From assembly GCA_965645245.1 (NCBI GenBank), contig OZ287074.1, positions 310,001 to 374,000 on the forward strand: DNA of 64,000 nucleotides, given 5' to 3'. A model generated the notes under the pieces. The model made no database searches. It worked only from the letters and a program-made list of their open reading frames with translations, and had not been told where the DNA came from. The position numbers and the translations under genes are program-made. The stretch is from Massalongia carnosa (Eukaryota). Shown in pieces: positions 23,836 through 60,228 of the stretch. Position 1 is the stretch's first letter. Every line of letters begins with the position of its first letter.

Positions 23836-24454
23836 CTTTGTGTGGCGGCAGCGCAAAGACGGGTTCAAATACAGTCCGACTTCGAGGTAGTCAAGACTCG
23901 CTCCTTTGAGCCAGAGGTCATCAACAGCTACTTCGACTTGAGCTTTCTGGGAGCTCAAGAAGACAAGCCAGATAAATGGGTACTGAACATAACTAACCAC
24001 ATCACCTGATGACTACTAAGAGTACCCTGCACAGAGCGATGCACGCCACCCTCCTTGCCCCGGCATAAAGCCAAGTAAGAAGTGTGGTGTTGTCAATGAT
24101 GAAGAGGGGTTACTAATGGTCTAGAACAGTAAGGCGACCGAATTACATAAGACCACATTCTGATCTCTCCGGATAACGTGACTTGATCAAATCATATGCG
24201 ACATCTTTTGCTCTTAGGTTGGATTGTGAAACAAACCCCCAATCATTTAAAGAACCTGTCATGTCGGGATCTTCTGTGTGCGTTGCGTTGCAAACTGGAA
24301 TCAGTATGACGTACTTAACTGGCAGTTATCCGGATCATCATCCGGGGCCGACATCGATCATGAACCTTGAATCTTTTATCGATATCAGGTTAGCGCCCGT
24401 CTGAAGACAGGATCGGCAAGCGAAAGGCAAGCGACGCTTAGGTTTTTCAATGTA

Positions 24455-26409
24455 ACCGTGCGACCGAGGTAAATCCGATGGACCGCACCCGGAGCTACGC
24501 TCCAGGTGCGGCTCACCTCCATGACGCTATCATCTCCATGACGCATTTCTCAAACTCTTTACATTATATCCATTGATTGACCCTTTCAAAATGAAGCTAT
24601 TCAAAATCAAAGGCTGACGTTCATCTATCCAGCTTTCGGCCTTTTTACCCACCAAGCCAAACCGTTTAGCTATCGCTTTTCCATAGAGAAATATTTTCTT
24701 TTGTCTAGCCGTCTCAGCACGCTTTTGACGACCCTCCTCCCTTTCCACCTCTTCTTGGGTACGATGTAGGTGATTGTGCCTCACATCTCGAACGGTAACG
24801 ATTCCTCCCTTCTGAACAACGGTACCAGCAAGCTTTTTTCGGGCCCTTTTAGCTAATGCAGCTGTGTGTGTGGCTTGCAAGTCGCGTTGCGTCAATTCTA
24901 CGGAGTAGTAAATTAGCGTTTGCAACCGACCCTTTGATAAAACGTCGCATTCTTTCTGGAGTAATTTCTTTATTATTATTCATTCGCTGAATAATGTTTT
25001 CCCCTTCCTTAGCAACGTCTTTGGGCTTTTTGGGGTATGAGGTAGGATTATTGTCTCCGAAGATGATATTGGTAGTGGTAGTAATGCCGGATTTAAAGCA
25101 CGAATTTTGGTCAAGACTACCTCCGGATTGTAAGGTATCAACCCAGTTTTTTCCCAGGCTGATTTGATAGTAGATGATTTGAATGCCTTTGTACAAAATT
25201 GATTGAATGCGGCCAGAAAATCCAGACGATTGAAGTCAACGTCACCCAACCGAATGGCGTTGTCAACCGCTTCAGCATGATAATGTTTCATTGGCTGAAA
25301 AACACCAACGTCCAATGGCTGCGTCAAATGGGTTGAATGGGGGGGGGGGGTAATCTGAATAAACAGATATTATTTTCTTTCGAATATTCCCAAAATTCAT
25401 ACGTTAGATGAGATCCATATCCATCCAAAAAAAGAAGCCTAAACGCTCCTTTTTGAACCTTTTTTGAATGAGCATTAAAATGCTTTAACCACTCTAATGC
25501 TAGACAATCATTCGAATAGCCGCTATCGCTTGTAGTCAACACGATATCATCTTTCAAATCATTCTCTAAGGCCCATTTGTGAAGTATGTTGACCCCTTTC
25601 AAAATCAAAAAGGATGGAACGCTTCCGCCAACTCCATTGATGCATTCGACCGAAGTTATATAGTCTCGATTGTCTGGATCAGCGATCATAATTCGTTTAT
25701 GTGATGATAGTGTCACCACCAAATGGGTTACCCCACAGCCAACTCGAAAGCCTGTCTCATCCATATTCCATATATCATCTGGAGTTATACCAAGAAGGGC
25801 TACAGTCGATTGAAATGAAGAGAAATAAGTTTAAATATCCGTAACATTGTGAGCGTTTTTCCTTTCGGCTGCTAATGGCTTGCCTTTTTGCATGAAAAAT
25901 TGGGGATTTCTTTTCAAGAATCGTCCGGTCCAGCATTTTCCTACGCGGGTGAGAGAAGTTGAAGACGAGGAAGGATGTTGCAATTGCAACAAATAATTAG
26001 CTGCACCGCGAATCAATGGCAATCTTATTGATAATTCAATATCATCAAAAAATTCAATATACTCCTTCAGGGCTAGTTCTAGTGCAGCAGACAGCCTCAT
26101 ATTGACTGCTTTTCGCTTGCTATATCCATGTAGTCTTCTTTGAAATAGACGAGGTGAAATATCGAATTCTTTGGCACAGGCTGCGGCTGATTTGTATGTG
26201 TTCTTTGCAAATGCATCTAAGGCCTTTGCAATGTTAGCCTCTCGTTTCTTGTACGAATCAGACATGATGTGGTTGAATAATAAATGGTTGATGATAGATG
26301 ATAGAAATTTTTTAAAAATGCGTCATGGAGATGATAGCGTCATGGAGGTGAGCCGCACCCCGAGCGGAGCTCGGGATGCGGTCCATCGGATTTACCTCGG
26401 TCGCACGGT
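24455..26409 (-). mobile_element. pogo/Fot1-family DNA transposon, degenerate
   Basis: About 94-bp TIRs (ACCGTGCGACCGAGG... 24455-24548 / 26316-26409) flanked by TA on both sides (24453-54, 26410-11). Confidence 0.95.
24530..26265 (-). pseudogene. Disrupted pogo/Fot1 transposase (DDE_1 + CENP-B-type HTH)
   Basis: NMDETGF, LFLDGYGSH, QPLDVGVF motifs; in-frame TAA at 25831-33, frameshift at the poly-G near 25339-25350 and further shifts near 24910-24980. Confidence 0.9.
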
Positions 26410-26497
26410 TAGGGCAAGTAGATTAGGTCCTGACCTTGAACCGCTAAACAACATGGCATCACAATCAGCTTAACTGCAATCCCACCAATTCCAAACG

Positions 26498-45436: not shown

Positions 45437-46009
45437 GTCGGTACCATGATAATGATATCTTAAGTTATGTAAAGTCTCAAGATATTCCAATACTCATAAC
45501 TTCATCTCTCCTGCTAGCTCGAAGGATGATGATAAGAGGGCATCCCTTTGAAACTCAACCAAACGAAGACAGAAGAAGCCTTCCAAAGTAACTGATACTT
45601 AATTGAAAATGGTTACTAAATTGGTTGCACGCTAATGAATAGGTTGGCCAGTCTCCTGACAATAGCGTACGTAGGCATGTCCGTCGTCAGCCGTCAAAAC
45701 CACCCTATGCCCCAATAAGTAATGAATTAATTCTCCTTTTCGCTTCTATACCAACCCAAATGCAGTTGGGCAAACCTCTTTACATGAAAATTTTGTTCAA
45801 AAATTTAGAGACAAATTTATGCTCAGGAGGGGTACCTGTCATCAATATTTAGTTGAAGGCATCGCTCTATCACTTGGCATATGAGGAACACTGATTGTAA
45901 ATTTAGGAAGCAAAACTGGAAGCGTATCGTGACCTTAAATTCCGACTTCATCCTAGTTCTTACTAATCGTCGGCCTCGCTTAGCTGCCTCCATACGAGGT
46001 GTACCACCT

Positions 46010-47337
46010 CACGCGGGGGACAAAAAAAAAACTACACCAAAATTTAACCGGGTTCAACCCCCCACCAAAACACAAGCAATTTCCATACAATTTTGATGGG
46101 ATAATCACCATTTCAACAACCAGTCATCCAATTCATTCAATCTATTCAATAACCAGTCATTTTACCCTCACCATCCAAAACAGCTCTCAATCTATCTGGC
46201 ATAGTAGACACCCGTTCATTGATAAATGCCTGGGAAACGTTCGCCCACCCCTCATAAATTAGCCCCTTGGTCGTATCATCATCCCAATGAGGATATTTTT
46301 TTAAATATTGCTTCGGGGCCTGCCAGCAATTTTCTATAGGGGCCAAATCAGGTGAACATGGACAGTTGAAATAGTGCTTCAGATCGTTGTTCTGCTTCCA
46401 AGTGCGTACAATGTTTGATTTGCCTGGTCCATGTCCAGAATCACCGTCTTCTTCTAAGACGAAATCGTGTTTTGCTTCAATCCAGGGCTTCACAATAGGC
46501 TCCAATATAGAGTCGATATAGACTCGTTGACTAATCTTTCCATTGGAGTTTCCAGGAACTCTGTAAAAGTAGATATCTGACTTGAAGTCATGACCTGCAG
46601 CAGCCCAACAGTGATGTCTCTTCTTGACGGCCTCGTCTGGTTCATCTGCTTCTTGAATACAATCATGACAATAACGTTCACCTAATCTTCGTATGATGCG
46701 TAATTTGCCCTGAGGTCCCCATCCAAAGTGCACTTCGTCACTAAATCGAACTTGTTTCCAGTCTTCTGCATTTGGATATCTAGAAAGCATAGCATCTGAC
46801 CACTTCATACGAAGCTTTCTTGTCTTCTCGTTCACCCATCCCTTTCTGCACGCAATGCATTTGTGATAATCCATGGTGCCCATGATTCGTTGAATGGTTT
46901 TGCCACTGCAGTCTAGGCCTACTTCGAAGCCCAATTGCTCCCATGTAAGAGCGCGCGCCTCCATACCTTCTTCTTCCAATAGCCGTTCCATTTCTCTAAT
47001 CAATTTAGGCGTAACAATTTTGTGACGCCCACGAGCTTCAGAAACATCGGAATTATTATGATGACGGCGTGATGAGGCTCCTTCACGCAGGTATGCATAG
47101 CCCCTCGTACGTTCCACATCAAATGTGCGAAAAACATCCTCTTTGTGATAAGAAATGCCTTGCTTTTCGCAAAATTCAACGGCTCCCTGAATTTTAGCTT
47201 TGGTAGGAGTCTCGATATGTTTAGAATTCATAATAATGATAATTATCCCATCAAAATCGTATGTAAATTGCTTGTGTTTTGGTGGGGAGTTGAGCCCGGT
47301 TAAATTTTGGTGTAGTTTTTTTTTTGTCCCCCGCGTG
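46010..47337 (-). mobile_element. Tc1/IS630-like (DD37E) DNA transposon with CAC...GTG ends and 5-bp TSD CACCT
   Basis: 96-bp TIRs 46010-46105 / 47242-47337 (4 mismatches); CACCT at 46005-46009 and 47338-47342. Confidence 0.93.
46146..47231 (-). CDS. Tc1-like DDE transposase, intact 361 aa
   Basis: WKQVRFSDE, EEDGDSGH, SPDLAPIENCW motifs; 37 residues between the second D and the E. Confidence 0.93.
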   Translation of the reverse strand: MNSKHIETPTKAKIQGAVEFCEKQGISYHKEDVFRTFDVERTRGYAYLREGASSRRHHNNSDVSEARGRHKIVTPKLIREMERLLEEEGMEARALTWEQLGFEVGLDCSGKTIQRIMGTMDYHKCIACRKGWVNEKTRKLRMKWSDAMLSRYPNAEDWKQVRFSDEVHFGWGPQGKLRIIRRLGERYCHDCIQEADEPDEAVKKRHHCWAAAGHDFKSDIYFYRVPGNSNGKISQRVYIDSILEPIVKPWIEAKHDFVLEEDGDSGHGPGKSNIVRTWKQNNDLKHYFNCPCSPDLAPIENCWQAPKQYLKKYPHWDDDTTKGLIYEGWANVSQAFINERVSTMPDRLRAVLDGEGKMTGY

Positions 47338-47685
47338 CACCTCTAGTCGGGGAAAGCGGTCTGCGTAGGCAAGCGATCTGCGTAGTTTCAATCTTAGGAT
47401 TCACCCATTTTACCACCTATTTTGCAGCTTTTTGCAACACTTCTCGACCGCAACCTACGACCGTTAGCTGTTATTAATCATACCATAGATAGATATCAAC
47501 TGCACATCCTAACTGCTCATTTATCAACCGGGAATGCATTATATTTTTCCAATTTCACCAGTTTTATCACCTATTTACAACTCATTTGCGACGCCGTCTC
47601 ATCATGATTTGCAAACTCCATTTGCTTTATTTTCAACCTCATTTGCAAATATTATTAATAAGTAGATATATATCAACTGTGCGTT

Positions 47686-48834
47686 CTAATATTTACTCCT
47701 AGTCTGACGATAGCCCCCTTGATAAAAGTTAAACTGCTCATCCTCATCACCCTCATCACCCTCATCATTCTCATTATTCTTAGTGTTGATCTCTGCAAGG
47801 ACATCTTGGATAGCCTTATCATGCCATTGCTTATAGGGTTGAAATACGCCCACATCAAGGGGTTGCATACAATGAGTCAGATGTGGTATCAGGGGGAGAG
47901 GGCGAATGTGATTTTCATTGGCAAGCTTTATAAACTCAGGGGTGCAATAACTAAGTCCCATGATTATCCATGAGCATCAATTTCTACTGCTTTGTAGGCC
48001 CCGAGTTTGTATTCGCAATGAAATGCTTCAAAAATTCAATTGCTATTTTATCGGTGATGAACCCACTTTTTGATACTTCAGTCAGAGTCCCCGTGGGCAG
48101 CCCCTCTTGGAACCAGTTCTGCATTATTCTACGACCTTGCATAATTAAAACGGGAGAAGGTGGTTGATGACCAGCGGCGTTGATGCTTTCGATTATGATG
48201 AGAGATTTGCGATTTTCTGGACTGATTGAATAGAACTCCTTAATATCTGATGGAACTAGAATTTCATGACCCTTCATACACCCAACTCGAAATCCTGCTT
48301 TATCAAAGTTCCAGATATCTTGTGAATGAGTTATCCCCAACTCTGCAAGAACCCGCTGATATCGATCAAACCATAATCTTACATCTGACTCCTGAGCCGC
48401 AGTATATCGAACAACTGCCAGCGGCTTAGTCTTTATCTTGTGCAGGCCATTGTCTTTCCACCGTTGCCTAAACCACCGCGGACTTGGATCATTGAATTCG
48501 GCATCTTGAGCACGTTTCAGAGTCTTAATGGCAGCAAAAGCCACTTTATGAGTAGGTTGAATGCCATACGCATTCAGAGATCGAATGAATTCGTGAATGG
48601 CTCTGACCTGATGCTCCTCCAGTATTTTGTTCTACCCTTCAATTTTCTTCGACGGCATCTTTTCACGTTCAATTGAACTGTATAGAGTGATGTCGACGAG
48701 GTTGAAGATTCGAGCAGCGCAAACGATGCTCTCCTTGGGGTTTTCTAATAAAACTGCTTAGCATTTTGCACGCGCGTTGCAATAGAATCACTGGTTTTAA
48801 TAAGGTTCTTATTCATTATGCTACTGCTATTCAT
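47686..48834 (-). pseudogene. Disrupted, C-terminally deleted pogo transposase
   Basis: WNFDKAGF, PHLTHCMQPLDVGVFQPYK fragments with stops and frameshifts; jumps directly to an acidic tail (ENDEGDEGDEDE). Confidence 0.85.
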
Positions 48835-49422
48835 GATTGAGGTGGGGAGCGGTTGATGAAATAGGGAGAGAGTGATTGACGAAATAGGAGGCATGCAACT
48901 GATGCGGTCGCGATTGAATAAAGGTGAATATCCCGGTTAATCAATGAGTAGTTAGGATGTGCAGTTGATATCTATCTATGGTATGAATAATAACAGCTAA
49001 CGGTCGTAGGTTGCGGTCGAGAAGTGTTGCAAAAAGCTGCAAAATAGGTGGTAAAATGGGTGAATCCTGAGATTGAAACTACGCAGATCGCTTGCCTACG
49101 CAGACCGCTTTCCCCGACTAGAGGTGGTACACCTCGTATGGAGGCAGCTAAGCGAGGCCGACGATTACCTATGAGTATCTACCTTTTCTATTGGTCTTCT
49201 CATGCGGCCAAACATGAAGTTTCCCAACAACAGAACACAATCATATATTAGGGGTTTTCAGAGTAGAATTTCGACTTTTATAAATAAACCATTATTTCTT
49301 ATTCTATAAACCATTATTCCCGTATTTGCCATTTTGCTCTGAGTCCCCCTATCACCTTAAATTTCAAAAAGATTAATAAACTGCTTATCGCCTTATCTGA
49401 TCATCATCAAAAATCAATCATC

Positions 49423-50679
49423 ATGAAATTCTCTAAAGCATCATCTTATCAAGCTTCTGAAATGCCTCGATACAGCAACAAGCTTCTTTTACAAAGAGAT
49501 CTGTACCACCTTTTCTTAGCCAGTAGTACTCTTGCCACCTCTTCCAATGAGGCCGATGACGCTTTGGAATACCTCATTCTTTCTGAAGGATTAAAGGATC
49601 AGAGATATCTTTTTTCCAGATCTTCCATTCTCAAGTCCAATTGGGCCGTTCGAGTCCTTCCCACTCTTTCAGATGATCGATATCGAGGCTATTTACGAAT
49701 GAGTCGTATCTCCGTTCAACGAATAGTTGATTTAATTCGATCCGATTCGGTCTTCCAAAACAATTCCAATATTCAACAGGCACCGGTCGAAAGTCAACTT
49801 CAATGTGCCTTATACAAGCTTGGTCATGATGGTAGCGGAAGCGGGTTTCTTTCAACTGCCACCTTTTGGGGAGTATCCGAGGGACACGTTTTCGATTGTA
49901 CCAAGCGAGTGGTGGAGGCCTTATGTCGGTTGAGGAATAGCTTCATCAAATGGCCAACTGCAAGAGCTAGGACAAGAGAAAGCTTAGCCAATGATACTCG
50001 AGAATCAGGATTTATCGGAGTAGTAGGAAAGGTGGATGGGACGGATATAGTGCTCAGTACCAAACCTGGAGGTCGTTATGACGGCGAATTATTCTTTAAT
50101 CGAAAGAAAAGATACGCCCTGGATTTATGTGCCGTATGCGATTCCGACAAAAGATTCATTTACTTCCTCAGTGGTTGGCCAAACTCTCAGCACGATCAGA
50201 GAATCTTCGCGGCGGGAGATTTGAATAGAAATCCTCATCTTTACTTCTCGGAAGGGCAGTATCTTCTCGGCGACAGTGCCTACACCAATTCTCGCTATTT
50301 GGTGACTCCATACAAGGCCCCTCATACCAGAGATGCGAATGTTCGAAAGTTCAATAGAAGACTGTCTCGAATTCGTATTGACATCGAGCACACCTTTGGA
50401 ATTTTGAAAGGAAGATGGAAAAGTTTAACCAGGCTGAGACTTCGAATTAGAAACAAAAAAGGTTACATCTACGCCATTCGTTGGATTACTGCATGTGTAG
50501 TACTGCATAACGTTTTGTTGGACATGCATGATGAATGGGAAGAAGAAGAAGGATGGTGGAGATCAGAAGAGGAGGCTCATGATGAAGAATTAAAACATTT
50601 GGCTACAAGGCAAATGATGGAGGGCATTTTGAAAAGGGAACAGGTAAAAGATCTAGTTCTCAATGATATTGGCAGATGA
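49423..50679 (+). CDS. Harbinger-type DDE transposase (DDE_Tnp_4/HARBI1-like)
   Basis: VGKVDGTDI, NRKKRYAL, GWPNSQHD, YLLGDSAY, RIDIEHTFGILKGRW, ACVVLHN. Confidence 0.93.
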   Translation: MKFSKASSYQASEMPRYSNKLLLQRDLYHLFLASSTLATSSNEADDALEYLILSEGLKDQRYLFSRSSILKSNWAVRVLPTLSDDRYRGYLRMSRISVQRIVDLIRSDSVFQNNSNIQQAPVESQLQCALYKLGHDGSGSGFLSTATFWGVSEGHVFDCTKRVVEALCRLRNSFIKWPTARARTRESLANDTRESGFIGVVGKVDGTDIVLSTKPGGRYDGELFFNRKKRYALDLCAVCDSDKRFIYFLSGWPNSQHDQRIFAAGDLNRNPHLYFSEGQYLLGDSAYTNSRYLVTPYKAPHTRDANVRKFNRRLSRIRIDIEHTFGILKGRWKSLTRLRLRIRNKKGYIYAIRWITACVVLHNVLLDMHDEWEEEEGWWRSEEEAHDEELKHLATRQMMEGILKREQVKDLVLNDIGR

Positions 50680-50728
50680 CTATTAAGCAAAATGCATCTC
50701 ATCTTTGAGACATCAATGAAATAAAATC

Positions 50729-51697
50729 TTATCTCTGGGACGTCTTCTCCAGCTCGATTTGTAGTCGTCGCATGGTCTCCTCATGTTGCATTTTAGCCAT
50801 GATAAAGGATTCTTCATGCTTCAAAATAATCTCCTGATGATGCTGATCTCGTTGCTTGATTTCTAGATCATTATTCCTTTGCAGTCTAGCCTGATCAATC
50901 TCGAAATCTTTAGATTTCATGAGTTGAACCTCAATCATTGCATCACCCACGGACTTGTTTTTAGATCTTTGCTTACTTAGCTTGGGACGAGACGTCTCGC
51001 TGTCGCTGTCCACATTCCAGGGACGTTTAGTGGATGATCCCATCTTCTTGTTAAGGGTAGAAGGTTTTAAATGTTTAACCGTCTTCTTCTTCATCGGACC
51101 TTCTTTCAACAAATCCGTTTCGGATTGATTATCTTCATCTGTAGTCTTATCCTTAAGATCAATCTCGAAGTTATCATCTTCTGAATCATCGTTCAGTTCT
51201 TTTCCGCCTGTCATCAATTCTGTAGTAACATCAGGCTGAGTGGACTCTATGAGAAATGGAGGGGTAATAGTAGGTAGATCCCCCATGATCTCTTCAAATT
51301 CATAGTACCATGCGCATTTCTTCAAGATAACCTCCTTGATTGTCTCCCCGCGAGTTTTGTCGGCGACAACATCATGATTGGTAGGATCCACTCCCCATCC
51401 AGTTGTATCGGCCAGACTCCGCGTCTCTTTGAAAGTCTTTATCATCTGACCGATTTTGTCCCTCGTCTTTTCCTTTGAGATGTCCGGTCGTTGCAGTCCC
51501 AATCCACTTTCTTCCAACAAACGTCTGGATGCCTCCACTTTATTACTCTTTTGATAGGTGTTTAGATGAGTAAGGACTCCATCGCCATCTCGAAAGCAAA
51601 GCCATTGAACAATCTGCTGAATGTCTTCATCTTTCCATCTGATGTTGGGAGCCTGGCGAGTTCGAACGATACGAGTAGGAGGGGGTGTGGACGTCAT
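50729..51697 (-). CDS. Harbinger second ORF, Myb/SANT-like DNA-binding protein
   Basis: NIRWKDEDIQQIVQWL, TGWG, KKCAWYYEFEEIMGD and a coiled-coil C-terminus; lies inside the TIRs. Confidence 0.8.
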   Translation of the reverse strand: MTSTPPPTRIVRTRQAPNIRWKDEDIQQIVQWLCFRDGDGVLTHLNTYQKSNKVEASRRLLEESGLGLQRPDISKEKTRDKIGQMIKTFKETRSLADTTGWGVDPTNHDVVADKTRGETIKEVILKKCAWYYEFEEIMGDLPTITPPFLIESTQPDVTTELMTGGKELNDDSEDDNFEIDLKDKTTDEDNQSETDLLKEGPMKKKTVKHLKPSTLNKKMGSSTKRPWNVDSDSETSRPKLSKQRSKNKSVGDAMIEVQLMKSKDFEIDQARLQRNNDLEIKQRDQHHQEIILKHEESFIMAKMQHEETMRRLQIELEKTSQR

Positions 51698-52602
51698 CTT
51701 TATTTTAGAACTGTTGAGGCTGATTCTGAGAATTTCTATTAACTAGATTTTGAGCCCTGACAAGAACACCCTGACAAGAACAGTGGTCAGCTATGAAAGA
51801 AGACGAGGTAGTAGTATTCTTACCTTAATTGTACGATTCGTTGATGCCGTTGATCATTTACCTTATAATTCTGATGAATGAGGTTAGTGGATTGAAGGAT
51901 TTATGAGATACGGGTTTATGAGATAATGGTTTATCGGTCGATTATTCCCGTGTTCCCGTATTTATAAAAAAAAGGGGTAGAGTTAAACCTATATAGGTTT
52001 AGTCTGCTTACTAATATTTACGGGAAAACGGGAATAATGGTTTATAGACTCGAAAATTTCTACTCTGAAAACCCCTATTAACAAGTATTCTTCTCCAACA
52101 CCAAAAACCTCGCGAGAATATAACAGCAACATGCTATGTAAAGGAGACAGAATACTCAAAACTTAGGCTGCCAAATTTATCGTTGTCATAGTGGTTCTGT
52201 AATGTCGTTCGCGGTATTGGTTTGTGCATATTTCGTAGCATAGTTGCCGTTAGTATCTTCACAACACAGAACCGATTTGAGCTCAGGATCTATTGTTATC
52301 TAGTTCAACAGAACTGTTGAGCCACCGAGAAGATATTAAATGAGGTTTCTAAGCATTCTTCTTTGATGTCTAGACCACCATTATATATCCGTTATCTTTT
52401 TTGTTCTGTTATTGCTTCTTCTATTTACCAACGTGTAATCTTCCCAGGCTTATCCTTACCTATTCTACAATTTATTAATAATCAGCTGATACACTTGATC
52501 TTTTTAGACAAATGAGGGAACTGTGAGATGCCAAATGCATGCAAGAATGGCAAAGTACCCAGCAAAAGACAAAAAAATGATTTGCACCATGCCAGGACCA
52601 TC

Positions 52603-57389: not shown

Positions 57390-58104
57390 GATGGTAGTAC
57401 AAGCGCAACATCGAGCATAAATGCGAGGACTATCATGCGAGCGTGGAATGTATCTAGCAAAATAAGCATTGGCATTCAGTTTCCCAAACTAAAGTTTTCA
57501 TTCCAAGGTGTACAAATTTATTGTCGGCTCAAACTTACGTTGTAGTCTGCTTTTCTAGGTTTATATGGCGGGTACACTATTTCCTGAAGTATACCAACTT
57601 CAGTCCTCATGACGTTGATAAACGTAATGCATGATTGCCTAACTAGTGACTGGGCCCTAGTTTCGGGTTCGAGCCATCAATCGTTTCAAGCGTTTCGTGT
57701 TCAGCATCAAATTAAACGGCTTTCATCTCCGCTAGCTGTTATCGATGAGATTCTACTCTGTACACGGGGATATAACTTACCAACTTGTCAAGACACTCCG
57801 TCCCACCAGTTCCACCACTTGATTTCTCTAAACCACCACATCAGCGCCATCACCTCAGCATTAAATAAACTTTAATTACTATCTAGGAGAAATAGGGATT
57901 AATTTTATCGAACCTCCAAGAACAAGGCTGAATCTTAGATGGACTAAAGTTCGCACTAAGGAAGCCATCTTCAGAGAGTACGGAGTATGTACGGAGTACT
58001 TTCCGTTAGTTAGTCTTTGGTACGTCATCATTTATAGAATACGTCATGGTAGAAAGTTGGGTAGGTACCTAACCTAATCCGGAGTGACTTTAATTAAGCC
58101 AGTA

Positions 58105-60046
58105 ATCGTGCTAGACCACTTTCGGAATGCAGAGAGCACCCCTTAGTGCTTACCGGCTCAAAGACGCTACCGGCTCAAAGACGCATTTTCAACATTTTAC
58201 ACCTCAACTTCGACACGTCAACAATCAACAACATAATGGTCAATTCATATTCAGCTATCGAGGATCGAATTGACAGTGCAATTGACGCGTTACATGATGG
58301 TTTGTATACTAATTGTCGAGCTGCAGCTATAGCTTTTGACGTTGCCCCTCGTACGGTTCAAAAACGATGGAATGGAGGCAACTCCAAAAGCAGTCGACCT
58401 AGTACCAACAAAGCTCTGACGGATGAGCAAGAACAAGCTGTTCGTGACTACATCGAGCGATTGGACAAGGCCAACATGTGTGCGCGACCCAAATTGATCG
58501 TGGGGGCTGCAAATTATCTGATTCGTTTTGAGAATCGTACTCTTGGTCATCAGTGGCTGAAGCGATTTCTTGATCGAAATCCCGAGCTTCATGTACGAAA
58601 ACAGAAGCCTCTCGCAGTCGATCGAAAAAATAGTCACGACGTTAACGATATGGTTGAATATTTCAGCAAATTAGAAAGGGTGATGAGGGAAAAGGGAATA
58701 ACGGAGCTGGATGTATGGAATATGGACGAAACAGGCTTTCGAATTGGATGCGGACGAGCTCAAATAGTAATCACCTTGGACCCACGAAAGCCTCTTCGTA
58801 TGACTGATCCGGATAATCGTGACTACATTACTTCTGTAGAGTGTATCAGCTCGGCCGGTGACGTTATTCCACCATTACTTATTCTTTCGGGTATTCATAT
58901 TCTTCATAAATGGTGTCAACACAACGATCTCGACGGAGAGACGTTGATTGGGACCAGCGAGACCGGCTATTCAAATGACGATTTAGCCATGGATTGGCTT
59001 CGTCATTTCATCGAGCATACACGGACTAAAAGACGTGGAGCTTGGCTACTTCTAGTCATCGACGGGTTTGGGTCTCATTCAACCATTCCGTTTTTGAAGC
59101 TGGCCACTGAAAATCAGATCGTTCTATTTCGTCTTCCAGCACATTCTACTCATTTGACTCAGCCGTTAGATGTAGGTGTTTTTCAGCCGTACAAACACTA
59201 TCATGCTGAGGCCATTGATCATGCGATACGAATGGGAGACACGGAATTTGGAAAATTGGAATTTTTAGCCGCATTCCAGGAATTTCGCAACAAGACATTC
59301 AAATCATCTACTATTCGTCATGCATTCAGGACCACCGGCATCGTCCCATTCAATCCGAACATGGTACTCGACGTCATTCGTCAGAAGCAAGCTGCAGCCT
59401 TGGAAATTAGGAATGAACCCCGCACCCCGAGCCCCCTACCTCTTCAATTTCATGAGCGCACCCCTCGAGGCCCCGAATCAATCAGAAAATTCGGTCACAA
59501 ATTGCAAAGGGCATTGACCGCGGCCGGGCCGATCGGTGGATGGATGGATAAAAAAACAGTGGACGGTTTTCAGAAATTTATTAGGGCCTCCATCACCTCC
59601 GCCAACACCCTAGATTTGACTACGCGGGACCTTCAGCAAGTGCAAAAAGCCACCACATCGCGTAAAAGTCGGGCCGCTCTCGGGGGTCAGGTAGCTGCAA
59701 AGGGTGGAGTCATAAAAGTCAGTCAATGTAGAGAATTATGTTCAATTCGTCAAAAAAAAGAGGAAGAAAAGGCTAGACGAAAGGAACAAAGGGAGGCTAA
59801 TAAGGGGAAAAAGGCCTCATCAACCCAGTTAGACAACGTCCGATTTTTACTAGGGCAGGGCCTGTTAGTAGAACAGACTGAGCAGTAGATTTTAAACCCG
59901 AAATGAAGCTATTTGGACGTCTTTTCATGAAGGTCTGATTTTTTTAATGTTGAGGTGTTGAAAAATGCGTCTTTGAGCCGGTAGCGTCTTTGAGCCGGTA
60001 AGCACTAAGGGGTGCTCTCTGCATTCCGAAAGTGGTCTAGCACGAT
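58105..60046 (+). mobile_element. pogo/Fot1-family transposon, intact
   Basis: Perfect 85-bp TIRs 58105-58189 / 59962-60046 with a tandem 17-bp repeat (TACCGGCTCAAAGACGC x2); TA on both sides. Confidence 0.96.
58236..59888 (+). CDS. pogo/Fot1 transposase, intact 550 aa
   Basis: N-terminal HTH, WNMDETGF, VIDGFGSH, PAHSTHLTQPLDVGVF. Confidence 0.95.
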   Translation: MVNSYSAIEDRIDSAIDALHDGLYTNCRAAAIAFDVAPRTVQKRWNGGNSKSSRPSTNKALTDEQEQAVRDYIERLDKANMCARPKLIVGAANYLIRFENRTLGHQWLKRFLDRNPELHVRKQKPLAVDRKNSHDVNDMVEYFSKLERVMREKGITELDVWNMDETGFRIGCGRAQIVITLDPRKPLRMTDPDNRDYITSVECISSAGDVIPPLLILSGIHILHKWCQHNDLDGETLIGTSETGYSNDDLAMDWLRHFIEHTRTKRRGAWLLLVIDGFGSHSTIPFLKLATENQIVLFRLPAHSTHLTQPLDVGVFQPYKHYHAEAIDHAIRMGDTEFGKLEFLAAFQEFRNKTFKSSTIRHAFRTTGIVPFNPNMVLDVIRQKQAAALEIRNEPRTPSPLPLQFHERTPRGPESIRKFGHKLQRALTAAGPIGGWMDKKTVDGFQKFIRASITSANTLDLTTRDLQQVQKATTSRKSRAALGGQVAAKGGVIKVSQCRELCSIRQKKEEEKARRKEQREANKGKKASSTQLDNVRFLLGQGLLVEQTEQ

Positions 60047-60228
60047 TAATCGGAGCTGGCATCTACTTACTCAAGATTCGGTTATCGACAAAGCGCCATG
60101 CATCGGTTTTGTTAGAGCACTTTAAGTGACGGTTGCAAGTTTTAATGATTGCAAAATGGCAACAGCCTGCATGTTTACGGCAGTACTCGTACAGAGAATT
60201 TACCAACAGCATTGTGGGGCTCCGATAA

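Follow-up and report, generated by a model that had tools for sequence, protein, structure and literature searches.

The window analysed here, a 64,000-nucleotide stretch of the Massalongia carnosa contig OZ287074.1, harbours a full-length, 1,328-bp Tc1-type element (46010..47337, reverse strand; ends CACGCG...CGCGTG), bordered on the left (46005..46009, forward strand) and on the right (47338..47342, forward strand) by the same 5-bp target-site duplication, CACCT. Its open reading frame (ORF; 46146..47231, reverse strand) encodes a 361-aa transposase with an N-terminal helix-turn-helix (HTH) region and a Tc1-type RNase H domain, and is enclosed by terminal inverted repeats (TIRs) lying downstream (46010..46112, forward strand) and upstream (47235..47337, reverse strand) of the gene. 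An earlier note on this DNA, made from the letters alone, had given these repeats as 96 bp; they are real, but 96 bp (with 4 mismatches) is a conservative end, the full repeat being 103 nt at 94% identity. With its size (~1.3 kb), its TIRs and its single ORF for one ~360-aa HTH plus DDE transposase, the element has the features of the Tc1 branch, as do Sleeping Beauty, Tc1 and impala (impala lies outside our Tc1-family sequence comparison).

The assertion that this protein is an intact DD37E transposase of the Tc1/IS630 fold held up. The predicted catalytic triad consists of D165 (FSDE; codon 46737..46739, by alignment to Sleeping Beauty), D262 (EEDGDSGH; codon 46446..46448) and E300 (SPDLAPIE; codon 46332..46334), all on the reverse strand and spaced as DD37E, and the Pfam model DDE_3 (PF13358) matches above its cut-off, with HTH_Tnp_Tc3_2 (PF01498) below it. 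A profile search recovered Sleeping Beauty (E 4e-23) and, weakly, Mos1, and the predicted model (mean pLDDT 84.9) had Mos1, Sleeping Beauty and SETMAR as its top fold matches. Sleeping Beauty is the closest solved structure to this model (Z 21.4, rmsd 3.9 over 209 residues), with Z 18.7–19.4 for Mos1 and 6.0 for the Tc3 DNA-binding domain; in the clamp-loop region (residues 178–195) the pLDDT values are around 50 or lower. Chains of Transib or RAG are absent from the sequence and fold matches listed for the protein.

The element sits in the left TIR of a larger element (45966..49165, reverse strand) that has a broken ORF, TIRs of ~240 bp and a TA on both sides, and is multi-copy in the M. carnosa genome. 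This host had been called a pogo; its DDE_1 match is weak (E 7e-4, below the cut-off), hence ‘pogo-like’. The insertion itself was confirmed: the filled site reads GTAC-CACCT-[46010..47337]-CACCT-CTAG, and the empty site in the host's other TIR (49122..49126, reverse strand) holds the 5-mer once. Outside the duplication, a TA stands at target positions −3/−2 (46002..46003, forward strand) and +6/+7 (47344..47345, forward strand), the preferred positions discussed below. This 30-bp stretch of the host TIR (45990–46009 plus 47338–47360) is an insertion hot spot, with the insertions L001, L007 and L020, further ones by TA-duplicating families (L246, L258), and three footprints. Adjoining the host, a PIF/Harbinger-like element (49249–52077) with short TIRs and an apparent 3-bp ATT repeat carries an intact 418-aa DDE_Tnp_4 ORF and a convergent 322-aa ORF, and two further elements (24453–26411 and 58103–60048), alike internally and with TIRs of ~90–100 bp, are probably pogo/Fot1-like.

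Five-base-pair duplications in family A and its relatives

The M. carnosa genome (52 Mb, 25 contigs) contains at least 41 long matches to the element, of which the best 30, full-length copies referred to as family A, were analysed. An exact 5-bp duplication flanks 30/30 of these copies, while lengths of 2, 3, 4, 6 and 7 bp fit 6, 1, 1, 1 and 0 of them. A constant CACCT would have been part of the element; instead, the 28 distinct sites yielded 26 different strand-folded 5-mers, none of which begins or ends in TA, while the element ends are identical in every copy. An empty paralogue was found for 8 of the 30 sites among the loci compared. A TA target-site duplication occurs in 0/30 family A copies, 0/41 copies of other subfamilies and 0/24 metagenome sites. 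The 5-bp duplication without TA described by the earlier note thus stands, and the flanks tabulated over genome copies and relatives are the variable 5-bp duplications that it had anticipated.

The element had also been judged probably still mobile. Because the ORF is intact in 22 of the 30 family A copies, the median number of substitutions between copies is 4 (with 9 identical pairs among 435) and excision footprints occur, it does appear to have been active recently. As a rough measure, the contig depth in run X1 (~5,900 on the element vs 139.5 on the flank) corresponds to ~42 copies. The copies differ from their majority sequence at ~3 positions each, and 41 of the 95 differences are C>T or G>A, which suggests that RIP has acted little, if at all, in this genome. 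The presence of almost the same sequence in runs labelled as several organisms raised the idea of horizontal transfer, which found no support because runs X2 and X4 hold only depth-2 pieces of the element; contigs of X1 and X3 carry it with host flanks. No RNA dataset was found among the listed runs carrying near-identical element sequence.

Beyond family A, 60 divergent protein matches (51–72% identity; 113 matches in the genome altogether) were examined, and the 41 in which both ends could be located fall into 10 further subfamilies or clusters, each with a distinct TIR interior. The duplication is an exact 5 bp in 27 of these 41 copies and has at most one mismatch in 32; 9 mismatch at two or more of the five bases, 2 of them as a reciprocal swap. 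The swapped pair, L092 and L093 (G000:C12, ~909–921 kb), belongs to a 70%-identity subfamily; the two copies are inverted relative to each other and their duplications are exchanged (GCTAT/CCTGT), the mark left when some 9.5 kb between them is inverted. Since dN is 0.15–0.52 between subfamilies and dS 1.5–4.5 or saturated, the transposase ORF is maintained under purifying selection.

More distant relatives (40–67% identity) came from 79 metagenome loci, 52 with TIRs and 29 anchorable, representing 24 distinct sites; the duplication is an exact 5 bp at 15 of these sites, and 8 mismatch at two or more of the five bases. When 21 unanchored loci were re-examined, exact 5-mers emerged in 5 more by script and in 1 by eye, and CTC, CAA and CAT/CTT termini were also found with 5-bp duplications; CAC is the commonest terminus in the clade but is not universal. 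The 5-bp trait follows one transposase clade over 40–100% identity and several unrelated metagenomes. No relatives were found in the viral or the prokaryotic contigs searched, and no tiny MITE with 20–50 nt between TIR cores was found. One clade member on a metagenome contig (L201, 42% identity) has CAAGG ends and a 7-bp flanking repeat, and no duplication was seen in its relative L209; the lineage of L201, a single case, possibly underwent a further change of stagger.

Phylogenetic position of the transposase

A quick tree was computed from 64 rows, leaving out 14 loci in which no frame stays open for 250 aa, and a catalytic-domain tree from 27 of those rows, with TA families of the same genome as the only references; the tree was rooted on a long IS630-like branch. 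In the 27-row tree the 5-bp (non-TA) proteins form one clade on a long stem (100/100) with family B, from the same genome, as sister (96/96), and the quick tree agrees in nesting this clade among TA-duplicating Tc1-like transposases. Its closest sampled relatives make 2-bp duplications, mostly TA: among the other Tc1-like groups of this genome TA is duplicated in 8/8 copies of E/F, 10/10 of C, 3/3 of D and 4/8 of B, and a 5-bp duplication in none of these families. By descent the focal clade belongs among the IS630-Tc1-mariner (ITm) elements, although TA duplication is one of the traits by which that group is defined (PMC7325037, in part). The focal clade has the KCxAC and RYCxDCIQ motifs, together with the TIR motif GGGTGACA, in common with family B, but family B duplicates 2 bp. 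Two of its 8 copies (L252, L253), at different sites, have TT on both sides, which points to a loosened TA specificity, at a stagger of 2 bp, in this sister family. At the loci L231–L239, IS630-like transposase ORFs lack any TIR within 3 kb and adjoin a second conserved ORF; these are probably larger multi-gene elements.

The focal clade shares with the Tc1 family the SPDLxPIE motif, the best sequence and fold match and an excision nick that would lie 3 nt inside the ends, and departs from it in having a variable 5-bp duplication, not TA. Tc1 sensu stricto is DD34E, unlike the focal protein (DD37E) and its clade (mostly DD37–38E); the WPPxSPDL of Tc1 reads FNCxxSPDL in the clade, where the glycine turn and the positions equivalent to P247/K248 of Sleeping Beauty are changed as well. 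TRT, L18, L31 and Mosquito have the DD37E spacing too. TRT, whose fungal matches are in Mucoromycotina only, duplicates TA (PMC5630946, in part). Because the D–E spacing varies from 34 to 46 within the clade (37 or 38 in most aligned rows, A1), DD37E is not a family marker.

Target preference, excision footprints and mechanism

The target consensus, TA-N-[CCWGG]-N-TA with a palindromic logo, is the same in family A, the other subfamilies and the metagenome set, and the GC content is 63–73% inside the duplication vs 45% in the flanks. The change of target choice proposed earlier was upheld in part: the duplication contains no TA, but a preference for TA persists outside it, at −3/−2 and +6/+7. 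TA occupies these positions in 24/60, 20/54 and 16/30 half-sites of the three sets vs a background of 5.7%. In the tally of 69 distinct sites the share of TA half-sites is 41%, and C hardly ever stands at −2 (1%); a single half-site is TA at 43 of these sites, both are at 7 and neither is at 19. The window's own insertion is the sole family A site with TA on both sides. These figures could be read to mean that TA recognition was kept, one protomer binding TA much as in Tc1 with the cuts displaced, such that TA comes to lie one base outside the 5-bp stagger. The frequent TA, the avoidance of C and the mild excess of one-TA sites (43/69 vs 33.5 expected under independence of the half-sites; P 0.018, or 0.008 within family A) speak for this reading; we nevertheless consider it rather unlikely, given that the excess is non-significant in each of the remaining sets (P 0.16 and 0.78), that TA is missing from both sides at 19 of the 69 sites, and that the position of the Mos1 aromatic wedge is acidic in the focal transposase.

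Paralogues of the window's target carry CACCT[GTG]CACCT, CACCT[CACGTG]CACCT and CACCT[AGTG]CACCT, alongside 13 empty ones. The GTG and AGTG linkers are ambiguous at this site, as its 5-mer starts with CAC and flank nucleotides could be hairpin-derived; for this reason footprints were sought genome-wide. With CACGTG as linker in a target-like context, the flanking 5-mers are identical at 6 of 37 sites (P 1.6e-9 for enrichment over a cross-pair rate of 4/1332) and one base apart at 4 of 37, and a control linker gave identical 5-mers at 0 of 21 sites. Reading by eye yielded 8 of 81 sites (6 contexts) for the GTG linker, 1 among 100 listed of 133 for its control and 0 of 13 for a 4+4 linker. For 0/10 of the genome-wide candidates was an empty paralogue present among the loci compared. 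When the collected loci were scanned all against all for indels, no convincing footprint emerged, and a second insertion hot site had none.

As the 5-mers of the genome-wide footprints do not begin with CAC, the linker derives from the element ends, and these footprints retain as many as 3 nt from either end, which fits a nick 3 nt inside. They match Mos1, an enzyme of the same fold, in which the non-transferred strand is cut 3 bases inside the inverted repeat (PMC5481204, in part). Excision thus appears to be of the Tc1 type, with a nick 3 nt inside and no hairpin, and only the integration stagger would have changed. The different cleavage stagger that had been attributed to an ITm lineage is accordingly narrowed to the target, where it is 5 bp, while excision stays Tc1-like.

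The genomic products are variable, GC-rich 5-bp duplications and donor sites repaired to 5-mer[GTG/CAC or CACGTG]5-mer. They make it very probable that the element is an autonomous cut-and-paste transposon of a Tc1 subclade, which would combine its own transposase and Tc1-like excision with a 5-bp target stagger. We infer, with good support, that the TIRs are bound by the element's own DD37E transposase, which, as Mos1 does, nicks the non-transferred strand 3 nt in from each end and cuts the transferred strand at the tip, no hairpin being formed, after which the two 3'-OH ends would attack the target 5 bp apart, not 2.

A candidate cause of the wider stagger emerges from alignment. Mos1 selects TA by adenine flipping, involving W159, R186, F187, K190 and V214 (PMC5481204, in part); W159 is replaced by H168 and F187 by E200 in the focal transposase. 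Twenty alignment columns are fixed in 18 5-bp proteins and absent from 8 TA proteins, among them H168, K232 (beside Mos1 V214), G266 (Sleeping Beauty K248; the neighbouring S265 corresponds to P247) and N289 (at the W of WPPxSPDL), and the basic-small-glycine turn (Mos1 R186/F187, Sleeping Beauty H187) has given way to a longer charged segment in the clade. Target bending and TA reading are tied to those positions in Mos1 and Sleeping Beauty (PMC5481204 and PMC8934666, both in part), and we put forward the hypothesis that their changed residues might have widened the stagger; we go no further because columns fixed in a clade may follow simply from shared descent, the model of the loop is poor and family B too carries an insertion after the second D. 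Two other candidates were rejected. The DD spacing does not account for the stagger, as family B is DD41E through that insertion and yet duplicates 2 bp, nor does a displaced GGGTGACA motif, whose distance from the tip varies among TA families too.

Resemblance to Transib and described Tc1-type elements

The earlier note had likened the CAC ends and 5-bp duplications to Transib and RAG, a likeness that is partial: CAC holds for the focal family, but CTC, CAA and CAT/CTT occur elsewhere in the clade. Most clade members do share with Transib/RAG1 the CAC termini and GC-rich 5-bp duplications, and the CCWGG-like core is similar as well (PMC1131882, in part), as might be expected if the Tc1 ORF were a passenger and a Transib/RAG-like transposase, or another one that duplicates 5 bp, mobilised the ends in trans. 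We consider this very improbable, in that the 5-bp trait tracks a single transposase clade over the range of identities and metagenomes given above, the transposase ORFs are under purifying selection, and the genome-wide footprints keep 3 nt of the element end, unlike those of hairpin-forming enzymes. Moreover, the termini vary within the clade, whereas Transib positions 1–3 are perfectly conserved (PMC1131882, in part). The D–E spacing of Transib/RAG1 is 206–253 aa (PMC1131882, in part) vs 37 aa in the focal protein. A RAG1 search of the M. carnosa genome gave no match anywhere, the controls being equally without match. The focal clade would be Tc1-like in excision and Transib/RAG-like in its integration product, and we regard the Transib resemblance as convergent. 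That the boundaries are mis-drawn, or that host repair produced the duplication after a shorter stagger, is scarcely credible despite a minority of older copies with mismatched flanks, as the ends are constant while the 5-mers vary, empty paralogues hold one 5-mer, repair would not give a length of exactly 5 in every family A copy, and the TA families C, D and E/F of the same genome give TA throughout.

Duplication length can shift within a superfamily, as illustrated by Zator (3-bp TWA), Tc4 (TNA), the ciliate TBE elements (ANT) and hAT5. To our knowledge, the exceptions within ITm are 3 bp long with fixed T/A positions, and none has a free 5-bp duplication. In the full-text literature, most subscription papers excepted and Repbase and Dfam being outside its scope, we found no description of a Tc1-type element with a 5-bp duplication. 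None occurs in the portions consulted of PMC11887251, PMC2817418, PMC5630946, PMC2851567, PMC4522978, PMC5915480, PMC5481204, PMC8934666, PMC3538342, PMC13004909, PMC4188875, PMC7325037, PMC11544213, PMC6737239 and PMC1131882; 5-bp duplications are reported there for unclassified small repeats, namely Smini1/3 (PMC2851567, in part) and two MITE families (PMC4522978, in part). The clade accessions KDN61748, PQE31529 and EDU4* are absent from part 1 of the tree file in the supplement of PMC7325037. Because TA duplication is a defining trait of the group and serves as a filter in fungal surveys (PMC4188875, in part), the 5-bp clade would be missed or mislabelled. On balance, we lean towards regarding its 5-bp trait as undescribed. 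Mftc1 of Monilinia fructicola, which we take to be a ~1.37-kb element labelled Tc1, could be a described member of the clade.

The named homologous proteins belong to Dothideomycetes, Leotiomycetes, Sordariomycetes and Orbiliomycetes, four classes of Pezizomycotina, from which the Tc1 subclade appears to be Pezizomycotina-wide. The reading that we somewhat favour is of an undescribed, Pezizomycotina-wide family derived from Tc1, in which a 2-bp TA stagger would have become a free 5-bp one (perhaps 7 bp in one sub-lineage) with Tc1 excision kept and with convergence on termini like those of Transib/RAG and on GC-rich target sites. If this is true, the 2-bp sisters in the same genome would constitute a natural experiment on stagger and TA specificity on a Sleeping Beauty scaffold, and the residues that set the distance between the two target cuts of a DDE transposase would become a testable question. 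Engineered Sleeping Beauty variants shift preferences around TA (PMC8934666, in part), whereas here evolution would have altered the stagger itself, with a TT-tolerant 2-bp sister in the same genome. A Tc1-type enzyme that is active and prefers GC could, in addition, be put to use for tagging or as a vector, with a new range of insertion sites. Two multi-copy clade members (P0058, P0046) are annotated as HMG box proteins in Pyrenophora tritici-repentis and Rutstroemia, a label that is a mis-annotation.
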